DNA of 64,000 nt from a bacterium. Lineage in GTDB: Bacteria; SM23-81; DAOVCL01. The stretch lies in contig JAOZPP010000001.1 of the NCBI GenBank assembly GCA_029932675.1, positions 24,099-88,098 on the forward strand. Direction: 5' to 3'. The translations under genes were made by a program, and so were the position numbers. Every line of letters begins with the position of its first letter. The first letter of the stretch is position 1. A model generated the notes under the pieces. The model made no database searches. It was not told where the DNA came from and saw nothing but the letters and a program-made list of their open reading frames with translations. This document shows, in pieces, positions 21,539-63,807 of this stretch.

Positions 21539-21745
21539 CCTTTTGCCACAGAAAGTGAAATATTTCAGAGAAAGTTGGACTTTTTAGGGCTTTTAAAATG
21601 TTGTGGTTCCCTAACGCATAACGCAGGATTTTTATTCGGTGACCTTCGGTGCTGAATGAATGTTATTTACCCTGTTCATCCTGTCAATCCTGTCTAAAAA
21701 TGGAAGTTCTCACGATTTAAGGTTCAAAATCTACAAAATCTGCGG

Positions 21746-22582
21746 TCATCTGTGTTCTTCAGTGGCAGTCTTCCCCTTTAAGATAGCCCCAAATATAGCT
21801 AACAAAATCAGGGAAAAGGCAAAGACCGTAATCCCGGAGAATTTATGAAAAAAGCCCTCTGCCATCTCTCTTCCAAAAAGATGTGAAAGAACCCCGGTAA
21901 GGGAGATTCTCGCTATGTTGGCAGCAATGGCTATAGGGATAGTAAAAAGAAATAGAACCGCTCTCTTCCAAAGAATCTTCTGATGAAGATAAGAAAAGAT
22001 GGCGCCAAGAGCCATCAATGAAATCAGAGACCTGAGCCCACTGCAGGCAGTTGCCACTTCCATAGTAAGATTAGGCAGATAGATGACATTCCCCTCCCTA
22101 ACGGCGGAGACACCAAGAGAGGAAAGAATTATCATCGATAATCTGCTGGCAAAAAGTTTAAGGGGAAGGGTGATTTGATTGTAGAGACTATCCGGGAAAG
22201 GGAAGAGGAAAACAAGATATAACCAGGGGAAAAGGAGCTCTGTGGTCATCTCTCTTCCAGTGAGCCAAAGGAGCAGTCCCCCTAAGACCATCAAGAAAGA
22301 GATGTTTGTACCAGTTGAAGACCAGGTTAACGTGCTCAAAATATATAAAAGACAACCGAATATCAACACGGGTAACCCAAACTCCGCTGGATCATTTCCA
22401 ATGGATGATATTCTCCCTCTCTTTCGCCAGACGATAAAAAGGGAAATGGGAAGGATGAGAAAACCATGGGAGTAGTCAGGATCCCAATGCCATCTATCCA
22501 CCAAACTAAAGAACATCGGATGATAGGCAAAGATCACCAAGAGAGAGATTAAAAATATTCTCCAGAATTTCTTTATAGACAT
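21746..22582 (-). CDS. xrt: exosortase (EpsH/Xrt family transpeptidase)
   Basis: N-terminal WHWDPDYSHGFLILPISLF motif. Active-site-like ATACSGLRS (Cys) and ANIARIS (Asn/Arg) motifs. Eight TM segments. Confidence 0.8.
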   Translation of the reverse strand: MSIKKFWRIFLISLLVIFAYHPMFFSLVDRWHWDPDYSHGFLILPISLFIVWRKRGRISSIGNDPAEFGLPVLIFGCLLYILSTLTWSSTGTNISFLMVLGGLLLWLTGREMTTELLFPWLYLVFLFPFPDSLYNQITLPLKLFASRLSMIILSSLGVSAVREGNVIYLPNLTMEVATACSGLRSLISLMALGAIFSYLHQKILWKRAVLFLFTIPIAIAANIARISLTGVLSHLFGREMAEGFFHKFSGITVFAFSLILLAIFGAILKGKTATEEHR

Positions 22583-22651
22583 TTCCTATGGATAGGAAGG
22601 TGTTAGGTTTTAGGAAATAGCTTAGAGAAGACGGGTGATAGGTGTTAGGTG

Positions 22652-23071
22652 TTAAGTGGAGAGGCGATGCTCATCCTTCCATTTGAGCAAGGATTTCTCC
22701 AATGCTCTCAGCATCTTTCCACACTCCTCGTAGGACTTACTCAACCTCTCGTATTGCCCCCTGGTCAAATAATCCTTGCGAAAAGCTATGAACAAGTGAT
22801 GCAGAGTCTCTTGGAGCTCCCCAAGAGAACGATTTATCCCCTCCAAGTAGATATTTATGTGCTTGTTATTCCAGCCCTCAGCTAAATTAGCTGCTATGGA
22901 ATTAGAAGACCTTCTTATCTGCGATCCTAATTCATAAAGCTCAAACTTAGGGAACTTAAGAGAGAACTTGCTAATCTCCAAATGCAGATCACAAAGCCTT
23001 TTGTATACCTCCAAATCCCCAAAGCTCTCTATCTTCTTATTGTCTTTTACCTTAAACCTACCACCTTCCAC
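22652..23071 (-). CDS. four-helix-bundle protein (23S rRNA intervening-sequence protein family, TIGR02436-like)
   Basis: SFGDLEVYKRLCDLHLEISKFSLKFPKFELYELGSQIRRSSNSIAANLAEGW is a typical family signature. Apparent GTG start. Confidence 0.6.
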   Translation of the reverse strand: MEGGRFKVKDNKKIESFGDLEVYKRLCDLHLEISKFSLKFPKFELYELGSQIRRSSNSIAANLAEGWNNKHINIYLEGINRSLGELQETLHHLFIAFRKDYLTRGQYERLSKSYEECGKMLRALEKSLLKWKDEHRLST

Positions 23072-23120
23072 CTTCTACCTTCTACCTTCTACCTATCACC
23101 TCTAACCTATCACTCACCTA

Positions 23121-23867
23121 TCACCTGATTACCACCATCCTTTTCGTCTTTCTCGCCTTTAACCTATCACCTACCACCTCTAACCTATAAAAATATACCC
23201 CACTGCAAACCTCTTCCCCAAAATTGTCCCTTCCATCCCACACGACCCTATAATAACCCGGCTCCTTTTCTCCGTCAATCAGATCTCTCACCTTCTCTCC
23301 CAAGCTATTGTAAACTTTTAAGGTTATGGGTATGAGGTGAGAGGCGTTAGGTTCCCCTTTCACCTTAAACCTTTCACCTATCACCTGGGGGACGGTGTAG
23401 CGGATGGTGGTGGACGAATTGAACGGATTGGGGAAATTTTGACTTAGTGAAAATCTTTTAGGCAATTCTTTCCCTTGAGTCTCATCAACACCCGATAAGG
23501 TAGTATCAGGAGAGGCTTCAGACAATGGCCCCTCCACTCCATCTGAGTCCACAGCAGAGACTTTAACCCAATAGGTATGCCCGGCTGAGCCGACAATAGA
23601 AGATATAGTATCATAAGCAATCTTTACGAACTTATAGCTCGTATCATTGTTTACATCTACCGCCCTATAGACCTTATAATGGTCAACAGGAGCCCCAGTT
23701 TTCGGAGGCGACCAGTGAAAAACAAGTGCATTTTCCTGCCCCAACGCAGAGGTGTTCCCAGGAGACAAAACAGAGTAGAGAACCACGATAGTCAGTAGAA
23801 AAAATGGCAACATCCGCAATTTTTGGGTCAATTTCCCCTCTCTCAAAAGTATAGCAGGAACAGGCAT
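23121..23867 (-). CDS. secreted FN3-like domain protein with T9SS type-A C-terminal sorting domain (paralog of the N- and C-termini of 15920..18991)
   Basis: FHWSPPKTGAPVDHYKVYRAVD matches CWSPPTQGSPVDHYNIYESVD in the larger protein. C-terminal NFPNPFNSSTTIRYTVP...ITLKVYNSLGEKVRDL...SGVYFYRLEV. Start is ambiguous (ATG at 23867, 23813 or 23933). Confidence 0.7.
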   Translation of the reverse strand: MPVPAILLREGKLTQKLRMLPFFLLTIVVLYSVLSPGNTSALGQENALVFHWSPPKTGAPVDHYKVYRAVDVNNDTSYKFVKIAYDTISSIVGSAGHTYWVKVSAVDSDGVEGPLSEASPDTTLSGVDETQGKELPKRFSLSQNFPNPFNSSTTIRYTVPQVIGERFKVKGEPNASHLIPITLKVYNSLGEKVRDLIDGEKEPGYYRVVWDGRDNFGEEVCSGVYFYRLEVVGDRLKARKTKRMVVIR

Positions 23868-31893: not shown

Positions 31894-31972
31894 ACTTTGA
31901 CCTCCTATATCTCATTCTCATTAGACAGGATTTACCGGATGATCAGGATAATAGAAAATCAATTTAGTAATA

Positions 31973-33208
31973 CTACCCAAAATCTATAAGAAACTTAAAG
32001 ATAGACTCTATATCCGTGCTGGTGACATATTTATGTGTAGGTAAGGTCAAAATTCTTTCCGCCAAGAATTTCGCCTGGGGGCAATTTACTGCATTGCCAG
32101 CAAGATATTTTCCAATTCGAGGGATCTCAGCGATGGATTTTGGATACATCGTGGAGGCCCCTAAACCCGAACTGGAAAGAGTTTTATATAGTTTCGACCG
32201 CAAGCTCTCATTCTTAAGGATCAATGGAAATCTAAGGTAAACGGGATCGCCATTCTCAATTGGCAAAGGATATGAAATATTCTTGTTCTGTTTAATCCTC
32301 CTCATTATCAAATCAGCGATCCTTTTCCTCTGCTGATTAAGTCCATCTAACCTTTCTATTTGAGATATACCCAGAGCTGATTGGAACCTGCTGGGTTTTT
32401 GGATTTTGAAATTAGGATCAAATTTGGAAACACCCAATTGAAGAAAAGGCAATTTTTCGGGGAACCAATAGAGCCGAGGGCGAAGAAACGCCGAATACAG
32501 CAAAGCCTTGATGAGAAACTCTACATCTTTCAGTAATCCCGCTTCTGGTAACTCCAATAGGTATTTCTCAATTAACGATGCAATCCTATCGGAATTGGTG
32601 ACTATAACTCCTCCTCCCAGAGTAGTAACATTTTTCCCTCTGCCCAGACTGAAGAAGCCTACATCCCCCAAGGTCCCACAGCATTTCTCCTCAATCTTTG
32701 CTCCAAACGCCTGAGCAGCATCATCAACCACAAACACATTGTTGTGCTGAGCTATCTCACAGATTCTCTTTAGATCACTGGGCAATCCAAATAGGCTGCT
32801 GGGAACAATACAGAGGACATCACTGTAGTCTGTCCCCTTTAGCTTCTCGTAATCAAAGTCCAAGGTTTTCAGATCAATATCGCACAATTTGATTTTTAAC
32901 CCGGCTCTGACAATCGCTGAGGGGACAGAAAAACAGGTATAAGCGGGGATTAGAGCTATATTCCTATTTTTATCGGCTAATTGTGAAAGAGCTTTCAATA
33001 TAAGGGTAAAACCGGCTCTACCGGAGGAAACTAAGAAAACATATTTGACTTGTAAGTAATCCCTTATCTCCTTTTTAAATCTCTCTCTGCAGGATTCCTT
33101 GGAAAAATAGAATTTTAAACTCTCCAATATCTCTTTGATAGCAATTGGTGTTCCTGCCGGCGGAAGGGACTTGAACATTCTTCTCCATCTATAGCTGACT
33201 TTATTCAC
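31973..33208 (-). CDS. DegT/DnrJ/EryC1/StrS family PLP-dependent sugar aminotransferase
   Basis: VVDDAAQAFGAKIEEKCCGTLGDVGFFSLGRGKNVT (Lys in GKN) is a family motif. GTG start listed, and the true start is uncertain. Confidence 0.7.
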   Translation of the reverse strand: MNKVSYRWRRMFKSLPPAGTPIAIKEILESLKFYFSKESCRERFKKEIRDYLQVKYVFLVSSGRAGFTLILKALSQLADKNRNIALIPAYTCFSVPSAIVRAGLKIKLCDIDLKTLDFDYEKLKGTDYSDVLCIVPSSLFGLPSDLKRICEIAQHNNVFVVDDAAQAFGAKIEEKCCGTLGDVGFFSLGRGKNVTTLGGGVIVTNSDRIASLIEKYLLELPEAGLLKDVEFLIKALLYSAFLRPRLYWFPEKLPFLQLGVSKFDPNFKIQKPSRFQSALGISQIERLDGLNQQRKRIADLIMRRIKQNKNISYPLPIENGDPVYLRFPLILKNESLRSKLYKTLSSSGLGASTMYPKSIAEIPRIGKYLAGNAVNCPQAKFLAERILTLPTHKYVTSTDIESIFKFLIDFG

Positions 33209-33236
33209 ATCGAAAGTTCCAATACCATTAACTCAT

Positions 33237-33472
33237 TTGACAGGATGAACAGGATTTACTGGATTTTTAATTTTCTCAAGGAAACACCGAAGGAGACGGA
33301 AAAGTTGACCTAAGAAGCGCAGATTCCGTAGATCGTAGTTCGTGGATCGTAAATCGCTGTTCGTCACTCGTAAATCGGCTAATAATTTCGTGAATTTTCG
33401 TGGCCCCCTAACGCATAATCCATATTTATCATTGTGCTTAATGAACGTTATTTATCCTATTCATCTTGTCAG
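33237..33472. repeat. full-length copy of a TIR-bounded MITE-like structured repeat (archetype copy B)
   Basis: Left terminus TTGACAGGATGAACAGG (~33237-33253). Right terminus CCTATTCATCTTGTCA (~33456-33471) is its imperfect reverse complement. Internal CACCGAAG...CTTCGGTG sub-terminal inverted repeats. Eight CGTNNNT heptamers at ~33327-33382. CCCTAACGCATAA box at ~33406-33418. Confidence 0.6.
33327..33382. repeat. 7-bp-period microsatellite (CGTNNNT x8)
   Basis: CGTAGAT CGTAGTT CGTGGAT CGTAAAT CGCTGTT CGTCACT CGTAAAT CGGCTAA. Related arrays at ~35295-35336 and ~50121-50155. Confidence 0.6.
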
Positions 33473-33485
33473 CCCTGTTACACTA

Positions 33486-33725
33486 TCAGGATGAACTATA
33501 TTCAAGGACCTTACCAATCTCCTTCAATCTTCTCCTACCTCCCTTCAATTCGCTTTCCACCTTTTCCAAATAACGAATGGTGCGTCGATCATAGTAATGC
33601 TCGCCACAACTCCGACAAACCGGGGTCTTAATGTTAACATAAACGACATCTTTACCAACTGAAATCACTTCTTTGACATCCATCACTTGAACATCTTCGC
33701 TATGACAAATTACACACCTCATCAC
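33486..33725 (-). CDS. YgiT-type zinc-finger protein (MqsA-like antitoxin-type Zn ribbon)
   Basis: CVICHS...CRSCGEHYYD CxxC...CxxC ribbon. Overlaps the upstream DUF4258 gene by 4 nt (ATGA). Confidence 0.6.
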   Translation of the reverse strand: MMRCVICHSEDVQVMDVKEVISVGKDVVYVNIKTPVCRSCGEHYYDRRTIRYLEKVESELKGGRRRLKEIGKVLEYSSS

Positions 33726-34045
33726 GTCCTCCTTCTCCGATAATCAATCCATAATTTAGGATTAGGATGATATACCGTAATGACGATTGTTAAATCTTCG
33801 TCTTTACCATATGCACATAGGATGTGCAATGGCCGGCTTTTGCGGGTCTTGCCAAACATCAAAACACTGGGATAGGGTTTATCCCTCGGGTATTCCCGAA
33901 TTACCTCCGCGCTACAGACCGCTTCGTAGACTTCGTTTTCTTTAATCTCACCAAACATCTCATTTCTCATCTCAACCCTTGCATGCTGAGTATAAAACAC
34001 ACGATTACTCTCAAAGCATCGCTGAATCTTCTTAACCCACTCCAT
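33722..34045 (-). CDS. DUF4258 domain protein (putative toxin partner of the YgiT zinc-finger protein)
   Basis: YTQHARVEMRNEMFGEIKENEVYEAV...PYPSVLMFGKTRKSRPLHILCAYGKDEDLTIVITVYHP matches the DUF4258 profile. Confidence 0.6.
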   Translation of the reverse strand: MEWVKKIQRCFESNRVFYTQHARVEMRNEMFGEIKENEVYEAVCSAEVIREYPRDKPYPSVLMFGKTRKSRPLHILCAYGKDEDLTIVITVYHPNPKLWIDYRRRRT

Positions 34046-34061
34046 TTCATTAACATTTATT

Positions 34062-34233
34062 TTGACAGGATGAACAGGATTTACTGGATTTTTGACTTCC
34101 TCAAGGCAACACCAAATGGCACCGAAACGACCGAAAAATTATCACGCACATCCTTCCTTAGAACTTATTGATATTCAGTTGCTTTCGGTGTTTAATGAAT
34201 ATTATCCTGTCAATCCCTGTCTATCCTGTCTGA
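34062..34233. repeat. second copy (C) of the MITE-like structured repeat
   Basis: A 32-nt stretch TTGACAGGATGAACAGGATTTACTGGATTTTT is identical to copy B. Right end ATCCTGTCAATCCCTGTCTATCCTGTC. Internal CACCGAAACG...CTTTCGGTG. Confidence 0.6.
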
Positions 34234-34242
34234 GTTTCCAAG

Positions 34243-35274
34243 TTAGGGAAAGTGTTTAACGATCTTTGGCCCAAAATGGTTTGCTACTGATAAGGGTAAC
34301 TTCCTCCACAGTTTTATAGCCATTTTATACTTGGGATTGCTGGGGTTCAATGAGGGGATTTCGTCTATGGAGTTTAGATAATATTGCCAATGTAACTGCT
34401 TTATCTCCCCGCCCCACTGCTTTTTAAATTTAAAAGTCCCTGAATCCCAACTGGACCTGCCGAAATCAAAATATTTGAAGCCATTTTCACATCCATATTT
34501 TATTGCCTCCCAATATAATAAATCATTCGGACAATATCTAAAATAGGATCTTAAGGAAGAAGCAGAAGGAATATATACCCGGTCCTTCCATAGAAGCATT
34601 AGGGCACCGCCGACAACTTTCTTACCTAATTTAACCAAAATAACCTTGGTATCCAAAGGAAATTCTTGGATAATGTTTTTGAACAGACTGTAACCCCAGA
34701 CTGGTGTCCCCAGATCCCTCATATTCTCCCCAAAGACCCTGTAGAAATGTTTTAAGTGAGTTTCACCTCCGATATCAACTTTCAATCCAGACTTTACGGC
34801 CTTCCTCACCTGGTTTCTTACCTTCGCCTTGAAACTTTTCCATATCTCCTCCGGGTTGGGTGTAAGGGGTAAAATAAATGTTACTTTGTCCTCTTTAGTT
34901 TTGAGACCCAAACCTGAACCATTAACAGACCTCATCTCCAAGAACTGGGCATTCTCCTTTTTGACAAATTCTATTGCCTTAGTTAAGAGCAGTTCCTCAA
35001 TTTCCTGGCTATCAGCACAGATTCCCCCATAGTCAATCCAAGGGAGGGAGATGAACAGTTTTCGTCTCAAGATTCCTTTGATACAAACCATAGGGAAAAT
35101 TCCTTTAATCCTCTCATTATCAATAGCCATAAGGTAGGAAGATTTGTGACCAAAGCTTCTCTCAAAAACTCTAAGCCAACCGATTCGATGGGCTATGGTG
35201 ACCCGTGGGGATTTAGCCACATACTGCTCCCATAGTTTTTCATATTTATCGGAATAACGGACGATTCGTAACAC
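34243..35274 (-). CDS. FemAB-related / GNAT-fold acyltransferase (exopolysaccharide locus type)
   Basis: About 340 aa with a FemAB-like pattern. Resembles the PEP-CTERM-system-associated FemAB family. Confidence 0.55.
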   Translation of the reverse strand: MLRIVRYSDKYEKLWEQYVAKSPRVTIAHRIGWLRVFERSFGHKSSYLMAIDNERIKGIFPMVCIKGILRRKLFISLPWIDYGGICADSQEIEELLLTKAIEFVKKENAQFLEMRSVNGSGLGLKTKEDKVTFILPLTPNPEEIWKSFKAKVRNQVRKAVKSGLKVDIGGETHLKHFYRVFGENMRDLGTPVWGYSLFKNIIQEFPLDTKVILVKLGKKVVGGALMLLWKDRVYIPSASSLRSYFRYCPNDLLYWEAIKYGCENGFKYFDFGRSSWDSGTFKFKKQWGGEIKQLHWQYYLNSIDEIPSLNPSNPKYKMAIKLWRKLPLSVANHFGPKIVKHFP

Positions 35275-35468
35275 GACGATTAACTCCTTAATCTCGTAGA
35301 TCGTGGATCGTTGCTCGTTGCTTGTTACTCGTAGGGATTTTAAGGTTTAGGTCTCTATGTCATTCGTCATCAGGGTTTTGGCATTAACTTGAGGCCCACA
35401 CCAAAGTGCGGTAGAAGTCCTCTACTCAAGGCAATCTGAAAACTGATCTCTGACCCTATTAACCGATT
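35275..35468. repeat. divergent/partial copy (D) of the intergenic repeat family containing a CGTNNNT heptamer array
   Basis: CGTAGAT CGTGGAT CGTTGCT CGTTGCT TGTTACT CGTAGGG at ~35295-35336. Shares CTCAAGG...CACC motifs with copies B and C but lacks clear TIRs. Confidence 0.4.
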
Positions 35469-39112: not shown

Positions 39113-39196
39113 ATTCCTTAACCTCCAAGAAACTAATATCGTTATTCGTTACTTAATCACGCTTACAAAAAAGGTCTGTTCCCCCCTCTCCTCTAT

Positions 39197-39224
39197 ATCC
39201 TGACAATCCTGTTAATCCTGTCTA
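39197..39224. repeat. right-end fragment of the repeat family (ATCCTG x3) abutting a stop codon
   Basis: ATCCTGACAATCCTGTTAATCCTGTCTA. The TAG stop of 39222..40361 lies inside it. On the mRNA strand it reads UAGACAGGAUUAACAGGAUUGUCAGGAU. Confidence 0.45.
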
Positions 39225-40361
39225 AGAGTTCACAGTTTTCTTGACCATATCGTAGTATTTCTCAAGATAACACTCTTCAGAGAGGTATTTATGGACATAA
39301 TGATAACCGTTCTCAGCTAACTTACGGGCATAAACTCTATCAGACAATAGCTCCCGCATTTTTTCGGCGAGATCCTGGACATTTTCTGATTGAAAGAGGA
39401 GACCATTATATCCATCCTTTATGTAAGTAGGAATCCCACCGACATTTGATGCAATTATAGGCTTTTTTGAAGCCATTGCTTCAAGAAGCACCCTTCCCAT
39501 AGCTTCTGACCTTGATGGTAAAACAAACAGAGAGCATTCAGACATCAGTTGGATAGCCTCTTCATAAAAGACAGGATCACATAATTCAATTTTGTTATTG
39601 CCTCTCGCTAAGTCTGCAAAATATTCTTTATGACTGGGACACCAACCAACTATTTTCAAGCTATATTCAGGGAAATCAGGAGAAATAATCTTGAATGCCT
39701 TAATCAATATATCAACCCCTTTTAGATACCAGGGGTAACCGAGAAACAGGATATATTTTTTATCCTTTTTACCTTCTTTGAATAAATTAAGAGGGATAAA
39801 ACCAGCGAAGCGATAGTATCCTTCCGGGTATTTTAATTTTTTATAAGATTTTATCTGATTTTTGTTTAAGAGTTTGACTGCATTCGCCCGATTTAACACG
39901 AAGGGCATAATTATATGGGTGATATTGTGTTTGATCCGATCCATAAGAATAGGTTTCCCAGAACTTTGCTTAAATGCCGATTCGAAATTCCCATTTACCT
40001 CAACTATTACTTTTACTCCGGTTAATTTGCCGATAAGAAGAGCAATAATTCCTGTGAGCAATGGGTCGGGTGAAACTATTACATCAAACTTATTTTTGAA
40101 ATAATGTAACCACAATCCTTTGATTGGAAAAGAGATTAGCATAATTAGATTGCGAATAACGGTGGACCTCCTGGCTACACCTGCATGGAATCTAAAATCA
40201 CCAATAGTAGCATTTCGGTCTTCTTTTCTGCTCCTATAGACCGCAGTGATCACATCGCCACAAAATCCCTGAGATAAACATCTATATTTCTCTTGTGGAT
40301 AAGTCCAGTGCAGGGTACTTGGTCCTGGCTTAACAAATAGGATTCTATATTTTTTTTGCAA
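39222..40361 (-). CDS. glycosyltransferase family 4
   Basis: RSEAMGRVLLEAMASKKPIIASNVGGIPTYIKDGYNGLLF. Confidence 0.75.
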   Translation of the reverse strand: MQKKYRILFVKPGPSTLHWTYPQEKYRCLSQGFCGDVITAVYRSRKEDRNATIGDFRFHAGVARRSTVIRNLIMLISFPIKGLWLHYFKNKFDVIVSPDPLLTGIIALLIGKLTGVKVIVEVNGNFESAFKQSSGKPILMDRIKHNITHIIMPFVLNRANAVKLLNKNQIKSYKKLKYPEGYYRFAGFIPLNLFKEGKKDKKYILFLGYPWYLKGVDILIKAFKIISPDFPEYSLKIVGWCPSHKEYFADLARGNNKIELCDPVFYEEAIQLMSECSLFVLPSRSEAMGRVLLEAMASKKPIIASNVGGIPTYIKDGYNGLLFQSENVQDLAEKMRELLSDRVYARKLAENGYHYVHKYLSEECYLEKYYDMVKKTVNS

Positions 40362-47895: not shown

Positions 47896-47991
47896 GGGAC
47901 AGACATTTATGTCCGTCCGCTTCCTCGAACTCCCTACAGCAAGAGACCTCAGCGATTTAAGAGGTGCTGTGAATTTATGAATAATCCGGGA
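47896..47991. repeat. left copy of a ~100-bp inverted repeat pair (partner at ~49867-49968)
   Basis: GGGACAG...CGCTTCCTCG...TCCCTACAGCAAGAGACCTCAGCGATTTAAGAGGTGCTGTGAATTTATGAATAATCCGGGA. Includes the last 5 codons and stop of the methyltransferase gene. Confidence 0.6.
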
Positions 47992-48424
47992 CAATAACTT
48001 CGAGGCTCTGACTTACTTTGGTTTTAAAGGTCCCTCCTTTTCCTCCCCAAATTCGCTCAGAAAAAAGGAACCATCCGCCCGGTTTTAATGAATGAAAAAT
48101 CTGCACACAAAGTCTCTCAATTTCCGGAATATGATGTAAAGCATCCCAAGCTGTAACCAGATCATATTTGTTTGGAGTTAACTCGTATTTATTCAAATCC
48201 GCCACAATCCAGTTGATTTTCCCTAGGGGTTTTTGCTTCAGTTGACTATGATATTTTTTAGCTACGTTGATTTCCCTTTCACTACAATCCACAGCATCGA
48301 CAATTTTCCCGGCCCATGCCATTTCTAAACTCAGCCACCCTGCACCGCGACCAAGATCAAGCGCTCTATCCCCGCGGCATCCCCTGGCAAACAGAGTCAA
48401 GGTTCTCCGAAATAAGCTCCTCAT
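47975..48424 (-). CDS. class I SAM-dependent methyltransferase
   Basis: Motif I ALDLGRGAGWLSLEMA. Start moved to ATG 48422-48424 (MRSLFRR) because the upstream in-frame extension to 48589 would overlap the ACP gene by 224 nt in another frame. Confidence 0.5.
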   Translation of the reverse strand: MRSLFRRTLTLFARGCRGDRALDLGRGAGWLSLEMAWAGKIVDAVDCSEREINVAKKYHSQLKQKPLGKINWIVADLNKYELTPNKYDLVTAWDALHHIPEIERLCVQIFHSLKPGGWFLFSERIWGGKGGTFKTKVSQSLEVIVPDYS

Positions 48425-49524: not shown

Positions 49525-49866
49525 AACCTATTTCCAATGAAGCCCACATACAATTAGAAACTTTCCCGGCGGGTAAAACCATCCATAAACCACAGATGAC
49601 CTCCCTTAACTAAAAACCCCCTGGGGAATGCGTTGAGGTTTCTCTCTAAACTATTTAACTGGGTGAACACAGACTTCCGCGGATAAAATCAACACTGCTC
49701 GTGGCTTGTTACACTACGCTAAATTTCCTTCCCAGTGCTTATAGCTTGAAGAATGAAGTGGTTCTTATTTCGTTTCATTCACCTCCCCAGTAGCCAGTGA
49801 CCCATAAAGGATGACCTGGGAAATATCAAATTTTCTACTTCTCTCAAGATCAAATCTGCAGATTTT

Positions 49867-49968
49867 ATCCCGGATTATTCACAAATTCACAGCACCTCTC
49901 AAATCGCTGAGGCCTCTTGCTGTAGGGACTCCGCCTTAGCGGAGCCCGAGGAAGCGAACAGACTGTCC
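49867..49968. repeat. right copy of the inverted repeat pair (about 90% identical to ~47896-47991 in opposite orientation, with a 17-nt insertion)
   Basis: TCCCGGATTATTCACAAATTCACAGCACCTCTCAAATCGCTGAGGCCTCTTGCTGTAGGGA... The plus strand reads ATC CCG GAT TAT TCA CAA (IPDYSQ), a pseudo-copy of the methyltransferase C-terminus VIVPDYS*. Confidence 0.6.
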
Positions 49969-50120
49969 CTCCAAGACATAATACCTTAAATTTAAAAGGA
50001 TTGTGCCATTTCGTTTCCAATTTGTGAACAATTGAGGTTAACGACTTTAAGGCAAAATATTCATAAACCACCGATGAGCACAAGTTTTCCCAGGCACAAT
50101 CGCAACCCCCCAAAAAAACA

Positions 50121-50155
50121 TCGTAGTTCGTTGATCGCAGCTCGTTACTTGTGAG
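50121..50155. repeat. CGTNNNT heptamer array (third locus)
   Basis: CGTAGTT CGTTGAT CGCAGCT CGTTACT TGTGAGG. Confidence 0.5.
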
Positions 50156-62079: not shown

Positions 62080-63807
62080 TTGAAGGTAAAAATTGCCCGA
62101 TACGCTGGTTTCTGTTGGGGAGTAAGAAGAGCGGTAAATATGGTTCTGGAGGCTGTACACAGAAGGGAACCGAACCTATTCACCTATGGGGCTCTCATCC
62201 ACAATCCTCAAGTCACTGGGCTCCTCCAAAACCTCGGCGTGGGGATTATAAATAACCCCTCGGATGTTACTCCCAACATCAACCTTTTCATAAGGTCGCA
62301 TGGGATATCCCCTCGGGAGAGGAAAGAGCTTCAGGACCGGGGAGCAAAGATCCATGATGCCACTTGCCCTTTGGTGGAGGTCGTGCAGAAGACGATCGAA
62401 AAATTTTCCCAAGATGGATATGGAATAATCATCGTCGGAGAGGCTCACCACCCCGAGGTATCCGCTTTATTGGAGTTTGCTCAGGGCAAAGGGGTAGCGA
62501 TCTCGAAAGAGGATGAGGTGAGGAAGCTTCCCCAATGGGAGAAGGTGTGCGTGGTTGCCCAGACGACCCAGGAGAGGAGAACTTTCAAAGAATTGGCTAA
62601 ACAAATTAGGGCCAAATACCGAAACTGCAGAGTATTTGACACCATCTGCCCAGCAACTGGAAAGAGACAGGAGGAGGTGCGAAAACTTTGTTCCAGGGTA
62701 GAGGCGATAGTGGTAGTTGGGGGGAGAAATAGCGCCAATACAACCCGCTTAGCCCAGATCTCCCGCTCCTTAGGGAAACCTACCTTCCATATAGAAACTG
62801 AGGAGGAGATAGGAAGGAAAGATTTTATAGGGGTAAAATCTATAGGTATAACTGCAGGAGCCTCCACGCCCAATTGGATAATTCAAAGGGTAGTGGAGAG
62901 GATAGAAAACCTGGAGAGGAGCGGTGGGTTGAGAGGACTTTTCTTCCGCGGGATAAGGTTCCTCATCCGCAGCAACCTCTACCTAGCCTTTGGAATAGCC
63001 TGCTTCAGCTATGCAGCAAGCCGCTTGCAGGGGGGCGAGCCCAGACTGGCTTTCCTTCTGGTAGCCTCGGGATACGTCTTCTCTATGCACCTTATCAACC
63101 ACTATACAGACCCCTCCCCGGCGAATTTCAACGAACCCTACAGGGTTTCCTTCTACCGCCAGCATAGATCCGCTCTGCTGAGCTTAGCTCTCCTCTCGTT
63201 GGTACTTACCATATCTTTATCCATTTATTTGGGTTCTCTCCCCTTCATCCTGCTTGCTTTTTTATCCTTAATGGGGGCAGTTTATCGGTTAAAGATCATC
63301 CCCCCTAGCTGGCCAATACTTCCTTATCGAAGGTTAGTGGAAATACCAGGCTCGAAGGATATCTTCCTCGCCTTGGCCTGGACCCTGGTAATAGTGGCTC
63401 TCCAGGGCCTGAGCAAGGGGAATAAGCTATCGCCTTCCTTGGGAGTAGCCTTTGCCTTCACCTTCATCCTCTCTTTGGTTAGGTCTACCCTCTTCAGCCT
63501 CAAGGACATTCAAGGGGATAGAATCGTGGGGAGAGAAACCTTACCGATAATCTTAGGAAAGAAGAAAACAAAACTGTTTCTGGTGACCATTTTAGCCCTC
63601 CTTAGCCTCCTCCTCCCCTTCTCCTGGATGCGGGGGTGGACATCCTCCCTAAGCCTCTGGTTACTCCCTACAGTGGCCTATTCTTACTTCTACCTTTTCC
63701 TCTACCATAAAAGAGTTATCTTTCAAGGTATTCTTTCCGAGGCGGTAGTGGATACGGGCTTTATCCTCTCCGGTGTCAGCGGTTATCTCTGGTCTCTTAT
63801 CCACTAA
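62080..63807 (+). CDS. ispH: fusion protein: 4-hydroxy-3-methylbut-2-enyl diphosphate reductase (IspH/LytB) N-terminal domain + UbiA-family prenyltransferase-like membrane domain
   Basis: IspH motifs GFCWGV, DATCPLV, GEAHHPEV, VVAQTTQ, ICPATGKRQ, VVVGGRNSANTTRL, GITAGASTP. C-terminal ~290 aa has 8-9 TM helices with UbiA-like NHYTDPSPANFNEPYR and KDIQGDRIVGRETLPI Asp-rich motifs. Confidence 0.75.
   Translation: MKVKIARYAGFCWGVRRAVNMVLEAVHRREPNLFTYGALIHNPQVTGLLQNLGVGIINNPSDVTPNINLFIRSHGISPRERKELQDRGAKIHDATCPLVEVVQKTIEKFSQDGYGIIIVGEAHHPEVSALLEFAQGKGVAISKEDEVRKLPQWEKVCVVAQTTQERRTFKELAKQIRAKYRNCRVFDTICPATGKRQEEVRKLCSRVEAIVVVGGRNSANTTRLAQISRSLGKPTFHIETEEEIGRKDFIGVKSIGITAGASTPNWIIQRVVERIENLERSGGLRGLFFRGIRFLIRSNLYLAFGIACFSYAASRLQGGEPRLAFLLVASGYVFSMHLINHYTDPSPANFNEPYRVSFYRQHRSALLSLALLSLVLTISLSIYLGSLPFILLAFLSLMGAVYRLKIIPPSWPILPYRRLVEIPGSKDIFLALAWTLVIVALQGLSKGNKLSPSLGVAFAFTFILSLVRSTLFSLKDIQGDRIVGRETLPIILGKKKTKLFLVTILALLSLLLPFSWMRGWTSSLSLWLLPTVAYSYFYLFLYHKRVIFQGILSEAVVDTGFILSGVSGYLWSLIH

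Follow-up and report, generated by a model that had tools for sequence, protein, structure and literature searches.

In a 64,000-nucleotide stretch of DNA from a bacterium of the SM23-81 lineage (contig JAOZPP010000001.1, positions 24,099 to 88,098; hereafter the window), two small genes on the minus strand lie within an exopolysaccharide (EPS) operon. Our analysis indicates that this pair is likely a chromosomal type II toxin-antitoxin (TA) module built like mqsRA and carried as a passenger in an operon of the Wzx/Wzy type. The first gene (34045..33722, minus strand) encodes a 107-aa protein of the DUF4258 family (PF14076), with a BECR/MqsR-like RNase fold according to Pfam and a predicted structure. 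The second gene (33722..33486, minus strand) encodes a protein of 78 aa from its ATG, or 79 aa from a GTG at 33725, with a zinc ribbon formed by C3, C6, C36 and C39 and without a helix-turn-helix (HTH) domain. Both open reading frames (ORFs) had been located in an earlier reading of this DNA (the original prediction) and were found where it had placed them. The pair is an intact, ordinary member of a catalogued TA family; the pairing itself is already on record, its activity is not. A survey from 2025 lists PF_DUF4258 as one of 13 BECR-fold families of type II TA toxins, with nothing known of its function, and counts 17 DUF4258-MqsA fusion proteins (PMC11980606), in agreement with the earlier view that DUF4258/YgiT pairings are putative TA modules with little characterization.

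The toxin matched PF14076 over the whole model (positions 1-71 of 71) and scored 70.5 bits, well over the cut-off of 25 (E = 1.5e-19), which places it in the DUF4258 family. Look-ups by exact sequence gave no database record for the toxin or for the antitoxin of the window. We found 73 homologues, all of them stand-alone proteins of 61-119 aa. An alignment of 46 sequences revealed H21, Y52, D55, P57-Y58-P59-S60, R71-P72-L73-H74, T90, Y92, P94 and W99 as invariant or near-invariant, and the window toxin retains every one of these residues. In its AlphaFold model (predicted local distance difference test, pLDDT, of 95.8) a helix is packed on a four-stranded antiparallel sheet, as in known members of the BECR fold. 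The top two structural matches of this model were TA toxins, MqsR among them, followed by BrnT (7.1), several RelE proteins, YafQ, HigB, ParE, CdiA-CT domains and colicins E5 and D. A recent preprint puts DUF4258 in the colicin-like branch of BECR proteins, where it equals Ntox49, and describes the sites of this branch as a His ahead of the core helix plus a second His on the last strand; its characterised members are mostly tRNases (bioRxiv 10.64898/2026.08.28.747851). In the window toxin, H21 belongs to the motif YTxHA where the second helix begins and H74 to RPLHI on a late strand, and these positions fit the His-containing site of that branch. The active site probably uses His21 and His74, with Arg71 and Tyr92 near. 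As for the substrate, the sequence family suggests tRNA, whereas the nearest structural matches are toxins of the MqsR and RelE types, which cleave mRNA.

The second protein carries the CxxC…CxxC zinc ribbon of the MqsA N-terminal domain, and all four cysteines are invariant among 11 partner proteins. The top four Foldseek matches of its model were MqsA or the isolated N-terminal domain of MqsA (probability 0.99, template modelling scores 0.35-0.61), and with a profile of the 11 partner proteins MqsA ranked first in the PDB. The structural alignment spans the whole 78-aa antitoxin and only the 60-70-residue N-terminal domain of MqsA. Since this match uses up the entire protein, no room is left for an HTH domain, and neither the C-terminal XRE-type HTH of MqsA nor a full-length match to it was found. 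A profile search of 1.84 billion cluster representatives returned relatives in 199 clusters at 50% identity, nearly all of 60-100 aa; given this consistent size, the absence of the HTH is a family trait and not a truncation. The notable trait of this module is an MqsA-type antitoxin without HTH, common to its relatives. The two genes meet at ACG TGA TGA GG, where they overlap by GTGA if the GTG start is used or by one base if the ATG is used, and an AAGGAGG ribosome-binding site lies five bases upstream of the antitoxin ATG, within the 3' end of the toxin gene. The original prediction had given an ATGA overlap here; the actual overlap is GTGA (4 nt) or 1 nt, and ATGA occurs instead in a close homologue (L011).

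The two small genes are neighbours in the same orientation and stay together in otherwise unrelated genomic settings, as expected of a type II TA module. A DUF4258 gene followed by a 75-86 aa four-Cys partner occurred in seven unrelated neighbourhoods (among them L001, L003, L007, L008, L137 and L139) and also in L010 and L011. The partner lay directly downstream at every DUF4258 homologue context inspected, from 83% down to about 40% identity, with most junctions overlapping by 4 bp and the others abutting. The surroundings of these pairs included prephenate dehydratase and FtsX (L001), a methyltransferase and a prepilin peptidase in Elusimicrobia (L003-L006), an upstream polyketide synthase (L007), a run of other TA modules (L008), Cas6 and other defence-type genes (L137/138), and P450 genes on both sides (L139). 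The close relative L010 is a short contig in which the pair comes after a HicAB pair. The closest relative of the pair, L011 (logan SRR17165181_188289, 28-590), is also a short contig, with about 88% nucleotide identity. Its toxin is a pseudogene, with an in-frame TAA and a 1-nt deletion causing a frameshift, and its antitoxin is intact; such a pattern of decay, a dead toxin beside an intact antitoxin, is typical of TA loci. Nucleotide homology of the window pair to both L010 and L011 (about 88%) stops at the edges of the coding module. TA modules are typically recognised in genomes by just such an arrangement of two genes, kept while the surroundings change fully, and the two families named in the original prediction indeed behave as a conserved, portable two-gene unit.

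Among the closest known systems is MqsR/MqsA (YgiU/YgiT) of Escherichia coli, which likewise has the toxin first and the antitoxin second, coupled translation and a four-Cys zinc ribbon. The two toxins differ in sequence family, however: the window toxin belongs to PF14076, gave no match to the MqsR family (PF15723) at E up to 1, and shares 7% identity with MqsR in the structural alignment. MqsR has a Lys/Tyr-type site, whereas the conserved residues of the window toxin's family are His-based. The window antitoxin, with 78 aa against the 131 aa of MqsA, lacks the C-terminal XRE-HTH, and MqsA-style DNA binding and autoregulation are not expected. Compared with the DUF4258/Ntox49 family as catalogued, the window toxin matches at full length and its association with an MqsA-type partner is on record; the usual order in this family is antitoxin then toxin (PMC11980606), whereas the toxin came first in all cases examined here. 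Other DUF4258 members pair with HicB, for example slr1421 of Synechocystis (PMC4963859). The BrnT/BrnA and RelE-type modules possess antitoxins unrelated to that of the window, namely ribbon-helix-helix or Phd-type DNA binders, and sequence similarity to them is below detection.

The surroundings of the pair are those of a biosynthetic operon. All on the minus strand, Pfam identified Wzx, two GT1 glycosyltransferases, LPG_synthase_TM, Wzy and FemAB/GNAT ahead of the pair, and DegT, GT2, GT1 and FkbM after it, which bears out the earlier placement of the pair within a polysaccharide operon. The upstream neighbour is an acyltransferase of the FemAB/Acetyltransf_6 type (34243..35274, minus strand), which served as synteny anchor, and the downstream neighbour is a DegT/DnrJ/EryC1 aminotransferase (31973..33208, minus strand; 165 bits). 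The wider locus is of the PEP-CTERM/exosortase kind, with the exosortase EpsH, DUF3485, a GNVR chain-length protein and a sigma-54 two-component pair. When the FemAB-like protein was used to scan metagenomes, a single syntenic locus (L132) was obtained, with orthologues of Wzy (35% identity), FemAB (50%) and DegT (39%), two extra genes and a GT2 (52%). In L132 the gaps between Wzy, FemAB and DegT measure 3 and 43 bp, and neither the TA pair nor any repeat is present. Because this locus is contiguous without them, the pair and the long spacers around it were gained in the window, that is, by insertion. The comparison with an orthologous EPS locus, which the original prediction had proposed, gave one distant locus that lacks both the pair and the repeats.

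Several points weigh against our assignment. According to the 2025 survey, no DUF4258 member has been assayed for toxicity or RNase activity (PMC11980606). For the toxin, searches of the PDB by sequence returned nothing meaningful, either with the single sequence or with the DUF4258 profile, and no recognisable Shine-Dalgarno sequence or promoter was detected at its gene. Both families named in the original prediction were recovered by profile search, yet the antitoxin exceeded the cut-off of TIGR03831 (YgiT_finger) by a marginal amount only, with 21.1 bits against 20.2, and it remained below the cut-offs of both MqsA models, matching positions 1-54 of 127 in TIGR03830 (20.7 bits against 61.8) and positions 1-56 of 131 in PF15731 (18.2 against 30). 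Its structural model, with a pLDDT of 84.6, was built on an alignment of five sequences, the Foldseek E-values of the matches to MqsA were 0.07-0.25, and a single-sequence PDB search yielded nothing meaningful for this protein. No PADLOC model matched the pair, and no relatives were found in PHROGs or viral contigs. In a search with RibBA, the closest named relatives were 74-77% identical and belonged to different phyla, and the closest relatives overall were 88-90% identical. Finally, L132 is the only syntenic comparator and a distant one, at 35-52% amino-acid identity.

From these observations we propose the following mode of action. The DUF4258 (Ntox49, BECR) protein would be a small endoribonuclease toxin using H21 and H74, and production of the antitoxin would be translationally coupled to the toxin gene. 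Most likely, the zinc-ribbon protein, as the equivalent of the toxin-binding N-terminal domain of MqsA, would bind the toxin and block access of the substrate; when the N-terminal domain of MqsA sits on MqsR, the antitoxin reportedly blocks the substrate groove of the toxin. The antitoxin would be expected to be the less stable partner. Without an HTH, it could not repress a promoter as MqsA does. A scan for sigma-70-type promoters and terminators between the FemAB and DegT genes detected none, with the caveat that sigma-70 may not be the promoter type of this host. Taken together, the lack of a sigma-70-like promoter upstream and the lack of an HTH suggest that the pair is probably co-transcribed with the operon by read-through, which is the weakest step of the proposed mechanism.

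The pair is framed by two copies of a repeat, which we call element C in the gap that separates the toxin gene from the FemAB-like gene upstream (34046..34242), and element B in the gap that separates the antitoxin gene from DegT downstream (33209..33485). The unit of this repeat is a 9-mer, ACAGGATnn, with a 7-nt core ACAGGAT and two free positions, usually in three copies with TTTT(A/G)G ahead. A typical arm reads TTTT(A/G)GACAGGATnnACAGGATnnACAGGAT and is followed by a loop of 10-150 nt and then by the inverse. In element C the arms lie at 34064-34089 (plus strand) and 34204-34232 (minus strand) with about 115 nt between them, and in element B at 33239-33264 (plus) and 33454-33482 (minus). 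The original prediction spoke of full-length copies on both sides of the pair; complete elements with inverted arms are present on both, with the reservation that the right arm of B is degenerate. In the sense direction, B and C have a GACAGGAT-type array just past the upstream stop codon and the inverse array 18-30 nt before the next start codon. The arms of element C pair with each other in the sense RNA (z = -2.76), and element B folds no better than shuffled sequence (z = +0.54). Inside B lie heptamer/21-mer units in tandem (33327-33377), together with a CCCTAACGCATAA box that also occurs in the copy at 21609.

Elements B and C also share a direct repeat composed of the array and about 40 nt beyond it, with copy 1 at 33236..33302 (plus) and copy 2 at 34061..34127 (plus); the two copies are 87% identical over 67 nt in a repeat search and 92.5% identical over 53 nt by BLAST. 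These copies are 825 bp apart, so that the repeated unit consists of the TA pair and most of element B. The shared stretch extends well past the array of about 26 nt, no other copy in the window has this extension, and by sequence comparison B and C are each other's closest relatives. Across the window, the 9-mer motif gave 15 matches where 2.0 were expected, forming 7 arrays against 0.16 in shuffles. Arrays were also present in three other gaps of the operon (21669-21697, 31921-31951 and 39187-39225), and 7/7 arrays of the window fall within the polysaccharide cluster (19000-42000), whose GC content is about 0.38 compared with 0.47-0.48 in the flanks. The GC content of the pair is no different from that of the neighbouring genes. 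Tandem heptamer/21-mer arrays of the ATCGTAG/TTCGTGG type occupy three intergenic regions, namely the one inside element B, 35293-35331 and 50120-50146.

To see how far this repeat extends, one genome per GTDB species (596 Gb, both strands) was scanned for GACAGGATnnACAGGATnnACnGG, a pattern with 19 specified bases for which about 4 chance matches are expected. At least 120 loci (L012-L131) carry arrays. Among the matches listed, bacterial hosts included Verrucomicrobiota, Planctomycetota, Kiritimatiellia, Lentisphaerota, Chlamydiota, Acidobacteriota, Chloroflexota, Desulfobacterota, Gemmatimonadota, Bacteroidota, Armatimonadota, Nitrospirota, Poribacteria and some Pseudomonadota, with the cultivable isolates Gemmata algarum JC673, Botrimarina colliarenosi Pla108 and Thiobaca trueperi DSM 13587; at least 9 loci were archaeal, mostly from Methanoperedens. 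For the 232 arrays in these listed matches, naive ORF calling placed 85% between genes. Head-to-head pairs (n = 70, with 10-150 nt in the loop) outnumbered tail-to-tail pairs (n = 6), and the orientation of flanking genes was near random (59 tandem, 22 divergent, 18 convergent). Between genomes only the array is shared, and the interiors are not. Complementarity of the free positions between arms was weak (45% against 34% in shuffles), which suggests that the 7-mer itself is conserved and not merely the stem. In the 134 neighbouring proteins, PIN (5) and ParE (3) were the commonest families, which is suggestive and not decisive. In three loci, PDDEXK_3/GxxExxY genes lie inside head-to-head arms (L012, 950-1472; L021, 841-1290; L105, 4929-5356); these ORFs start at or beside one array, read into the other and end with …NPVNPV. 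The idea that this gene represents an autonomous form of the element was weakened by 3/6 PDDEXK_3 genes in the fetched loci having no arrays nearby. In L023, a metagenome-assembled genome of Pseudomonadota (JBDRRF010000056.1, 150-5550), six pairs of the PIN, ParE and Phd/YefM types have four arrays between them; no integrase was visible within the 8 kb of this locus.

The element has features of several known repeats. Like repetitive extragenic palindromic sequences (REPs) and bacterial interspersed mosaic elements, miniature inverted-repeat transposable elements (MITEs) and 23S rRNA intervening sequences, it is short, palindromic, mostly intergenic and present in many copies. REPs likewise lie within operons just after stop codons, and intervening sequences also have an inverted-repeat stem and a variable loop, sometimes with a small ORF (as in L012, L021 and L105). 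Unlike REPs and MITEs, however, the arms are tandem 9-mer arrays, the core spans many bacterial phyla as well as Methanoperedens, whereas REP and MITE families are normally lineage-specific, and there is neither a linked REP-associated tyrosine transposase or other transposase nor a target-site duplication. Inverted arms and multiple copies were observed, and no recurrent transposase was found in the 134 neighbouring proteins. Integron cassettes resemble these loci in that small promoter-less genes, often TA pairs, have behind each of them an imperfect inverted repeat whose centre varies, and the TA-pair island of L023 resembles a cassette array. In contrast to attC, the ends of the element read TTTAGAC…GTCTAAA, so that the GTTRRRY-like half is 5' and the RYYYAAC-like half 3', the reverse of attC, and an attC site was rejected on account of these reversed ends. 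No integrase-like ORF was detected among those scanned in the window, and, unlike cassettes, most copies of the element are solitary between housekeeping genes. Beside the 9-mer elements, we observed a 23S_rRNA_IVP gene (four-helix bundle, 22652-23071) in the exosortase locus that is framed by inverted arrays of another short unit (22582-23388). These comprise plus-strand CCTnnnA/ACCTTCC heptamers at 23043-23188 and 23352-23388, with sense-strand ACACCTA-type units just past the stop codon, that is, the architecture of the 9-mer elements with a different unit.

Further identities were tried for the repeat. That it acts as an ordinary promoter, which the original prediction had named as the alternative that would speak against its own reading, is not supported, as the repeat has no sigma-70 match, is palindromic and shows no orientation bias. 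An intrinsic terminator was rejected because, whichever strand is read, the T-run precedes the hairpin and the A-run follows it. A CsrA-titrating RNA, considered because CAGGAUG resembles CsrB repeats, was set aside, as base pairing would occupy the motif in most copies and archaea have it too. The repeat matched no Rfam family at E values up to 1, BLAST against plasmids and phages gave four unannotated plasmid matches and no phage match, and literature searches gave no paper containing the repeat sequence, nor anything relevant on 7VD7 or the YgiT-type zinc finger.

Concerning the arrival of the pair rather than its function, it is possible, if doubtful, that the flanking 9-mer-array elements mobilised a composite or cassette-like unit with the pair as its cargo. 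Two routes could be considered, integration by a single crossover of a circle on which the TA pair and one element reside, or the movement of the intervening DNA by two MITE-like copies; we hold such an arrival to be rather unlikely. A direct repeat around the pair is what a single crossover between such a circle and a resident element would leave, and B and C indeed have 53-67 nt beyond the generic array in common and enclose the pair; a local duplication would equally yield it. The arrays come close to the coding module on both sides, leaving 18 nt to the toxin ATG and 4 nt from the stop codon of the antitoxin, and it is at the module edges that homology to L010 and L011 ends. In L011, the antitoxin stop is followed by an array, TTAGACAGGATTGACAGGATGAACAGGAT, of like subtype. 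Across phyla the elements cluster (15/18 gaps below 2 kb compared with about 39% expected, an estimate for elements placed uniformly within 8-kb loci), single small genes are bracketed by them, they are interspersed with TA pairs in L023, and PIN and ParE toxins make up 8/134 of their neighbours. Against this stands the observation that 7/9 independent homologous pairs have no array in the flanks fetched (L137-L139 not scanned); in L010 there is none upstream and the sequence ends downstream, so that an array was seen only in L011, after the antitoxin. The L011-type subtype is also present at 21669-21697, away from any TA pair, and shared ancestry of the TA pair and the array is therefore not demonstrated. 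The pair is located between two complete elements and not within one, no target-site duplication was detected at B, C or the composite, and no transposase or recombinase is tied to the elements, whose neighbours are otherwise diverse. By a rough count about 6/21 operon gaps hold arrays, which gives flanking on both sides a chance of about 8% under independence. With elements in other operon gaps and in unrelated contexts, the flanking could reflect a preference for short intergenic DNA. Of the earlier proposal that the pair was delivered with the repeats, the insertion and the two flanking elements hold up, and mobilisation by or with the repeats is not shown. A cassette origin of the pair is plausible but unproven. 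A wider proposition, which we regard as speculative and rather improbable, is that the flanking repeat constitutes an undescribed, cross-domain class of palindromic elements recognised by a conserved trans-acting factor, and that it marks or creates the junctions where small selfish cassettes such as TA pairs and GxxExxY/PDDEXK_3 genes enter or are swapped. On such a reading, the DUF4258-YgiT pair may be one of these cassettes caught in an EPS operon.

With regard to function, the original prediction offered addiction, with stabilisation of the island, as a possible role. A role mainly in abortive infection against phage or in stress response, rather than in addiction or selfish maintenance, appears unlikely to us. 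Several TA modules of the RelE/ParE superfamily do serve in phage defence (PMC11980606), the L137 homologue adjoins Cas6 and other genes of defence type, and L008 is surrounded by further TA modules. However, the absence of PADLOC, PHROG and viral-contig relatives leaves a defence role without support, the setting in the window is a biosynthetic operon and not a defence island, and housekeeping genes surround most homologues.

We find it improbable, too, that the pair is an inactive remnant, with a weakened or dead toxin and with genes that persist only through drift or transcriptional read-through. The broken toxin beside the intact antitoxin of L011 attests that decay takes place in this lineage; moreover, the window toxin gene has neither a promoter nor a Shine-Dalgarno sequence of its own, and the degenerate right arm of element B suggests that the insertion is old. 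In contrast, both ORFs of the window are full length, the family-invariant toxin residues and the four antitoxin cysteines are all intact, and a strong ribosome-binding site together with the overlapping junction preserves translational coupling. There is very little chance that DUF4258 here is a stand-alone polymorphic-toxin (Ntox49) domain with an immunity protein, left over from inter-bacterial competition: its boundaries overlap Ntox49 of polymorphic toxin systems and CdiA-CT and colicin nuclease domains are among its structural neighbours, but at 107 aa it has no N-terminal delivery, repeat or pre-toxin domain and no adjoining secretion genes, its partner is an MqsA-type antitoxin domain, intracellular TA toxins are its best structural matches, and 73/73 homologues are likewise small and stand-alone.

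Elsewhere in the window, a full LytB/IspH domain (residues 3-276) and a UbiA prenyltransferase domain (304-541) were found on one 575-aa ORF (62080-63807), an unusual fusion. An inverted repeat of 84 nt with 86% complementarity (47916-47999 and 49860-49943), unrelated to the 9-mer arrays, encloses a 1.86-kb segment with two genes, encoding an S-adenosylmethionine methyltransferase and a DUF3473 polysaccharide deacetylase.

In summary, the pair adds one more intact example to a catalogued TA family whose MqsA-like antitoxin is reduced to the toxin-binding zinc domain. It offers a convenient minimal model both for the target of DUF4258 toxins and for TA regulation by an antitoxin that does not bind DNA. 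Such modules can ride in biosynthetic operons, which is relevant when variation between EPS loci is read. Taken alone, the pair is of modest interest, and the repeat that frames it is more worth attention: should a common factor recognise the 9-mer motif, this would reveal an aspect of genome biology that is both new and very widespread.

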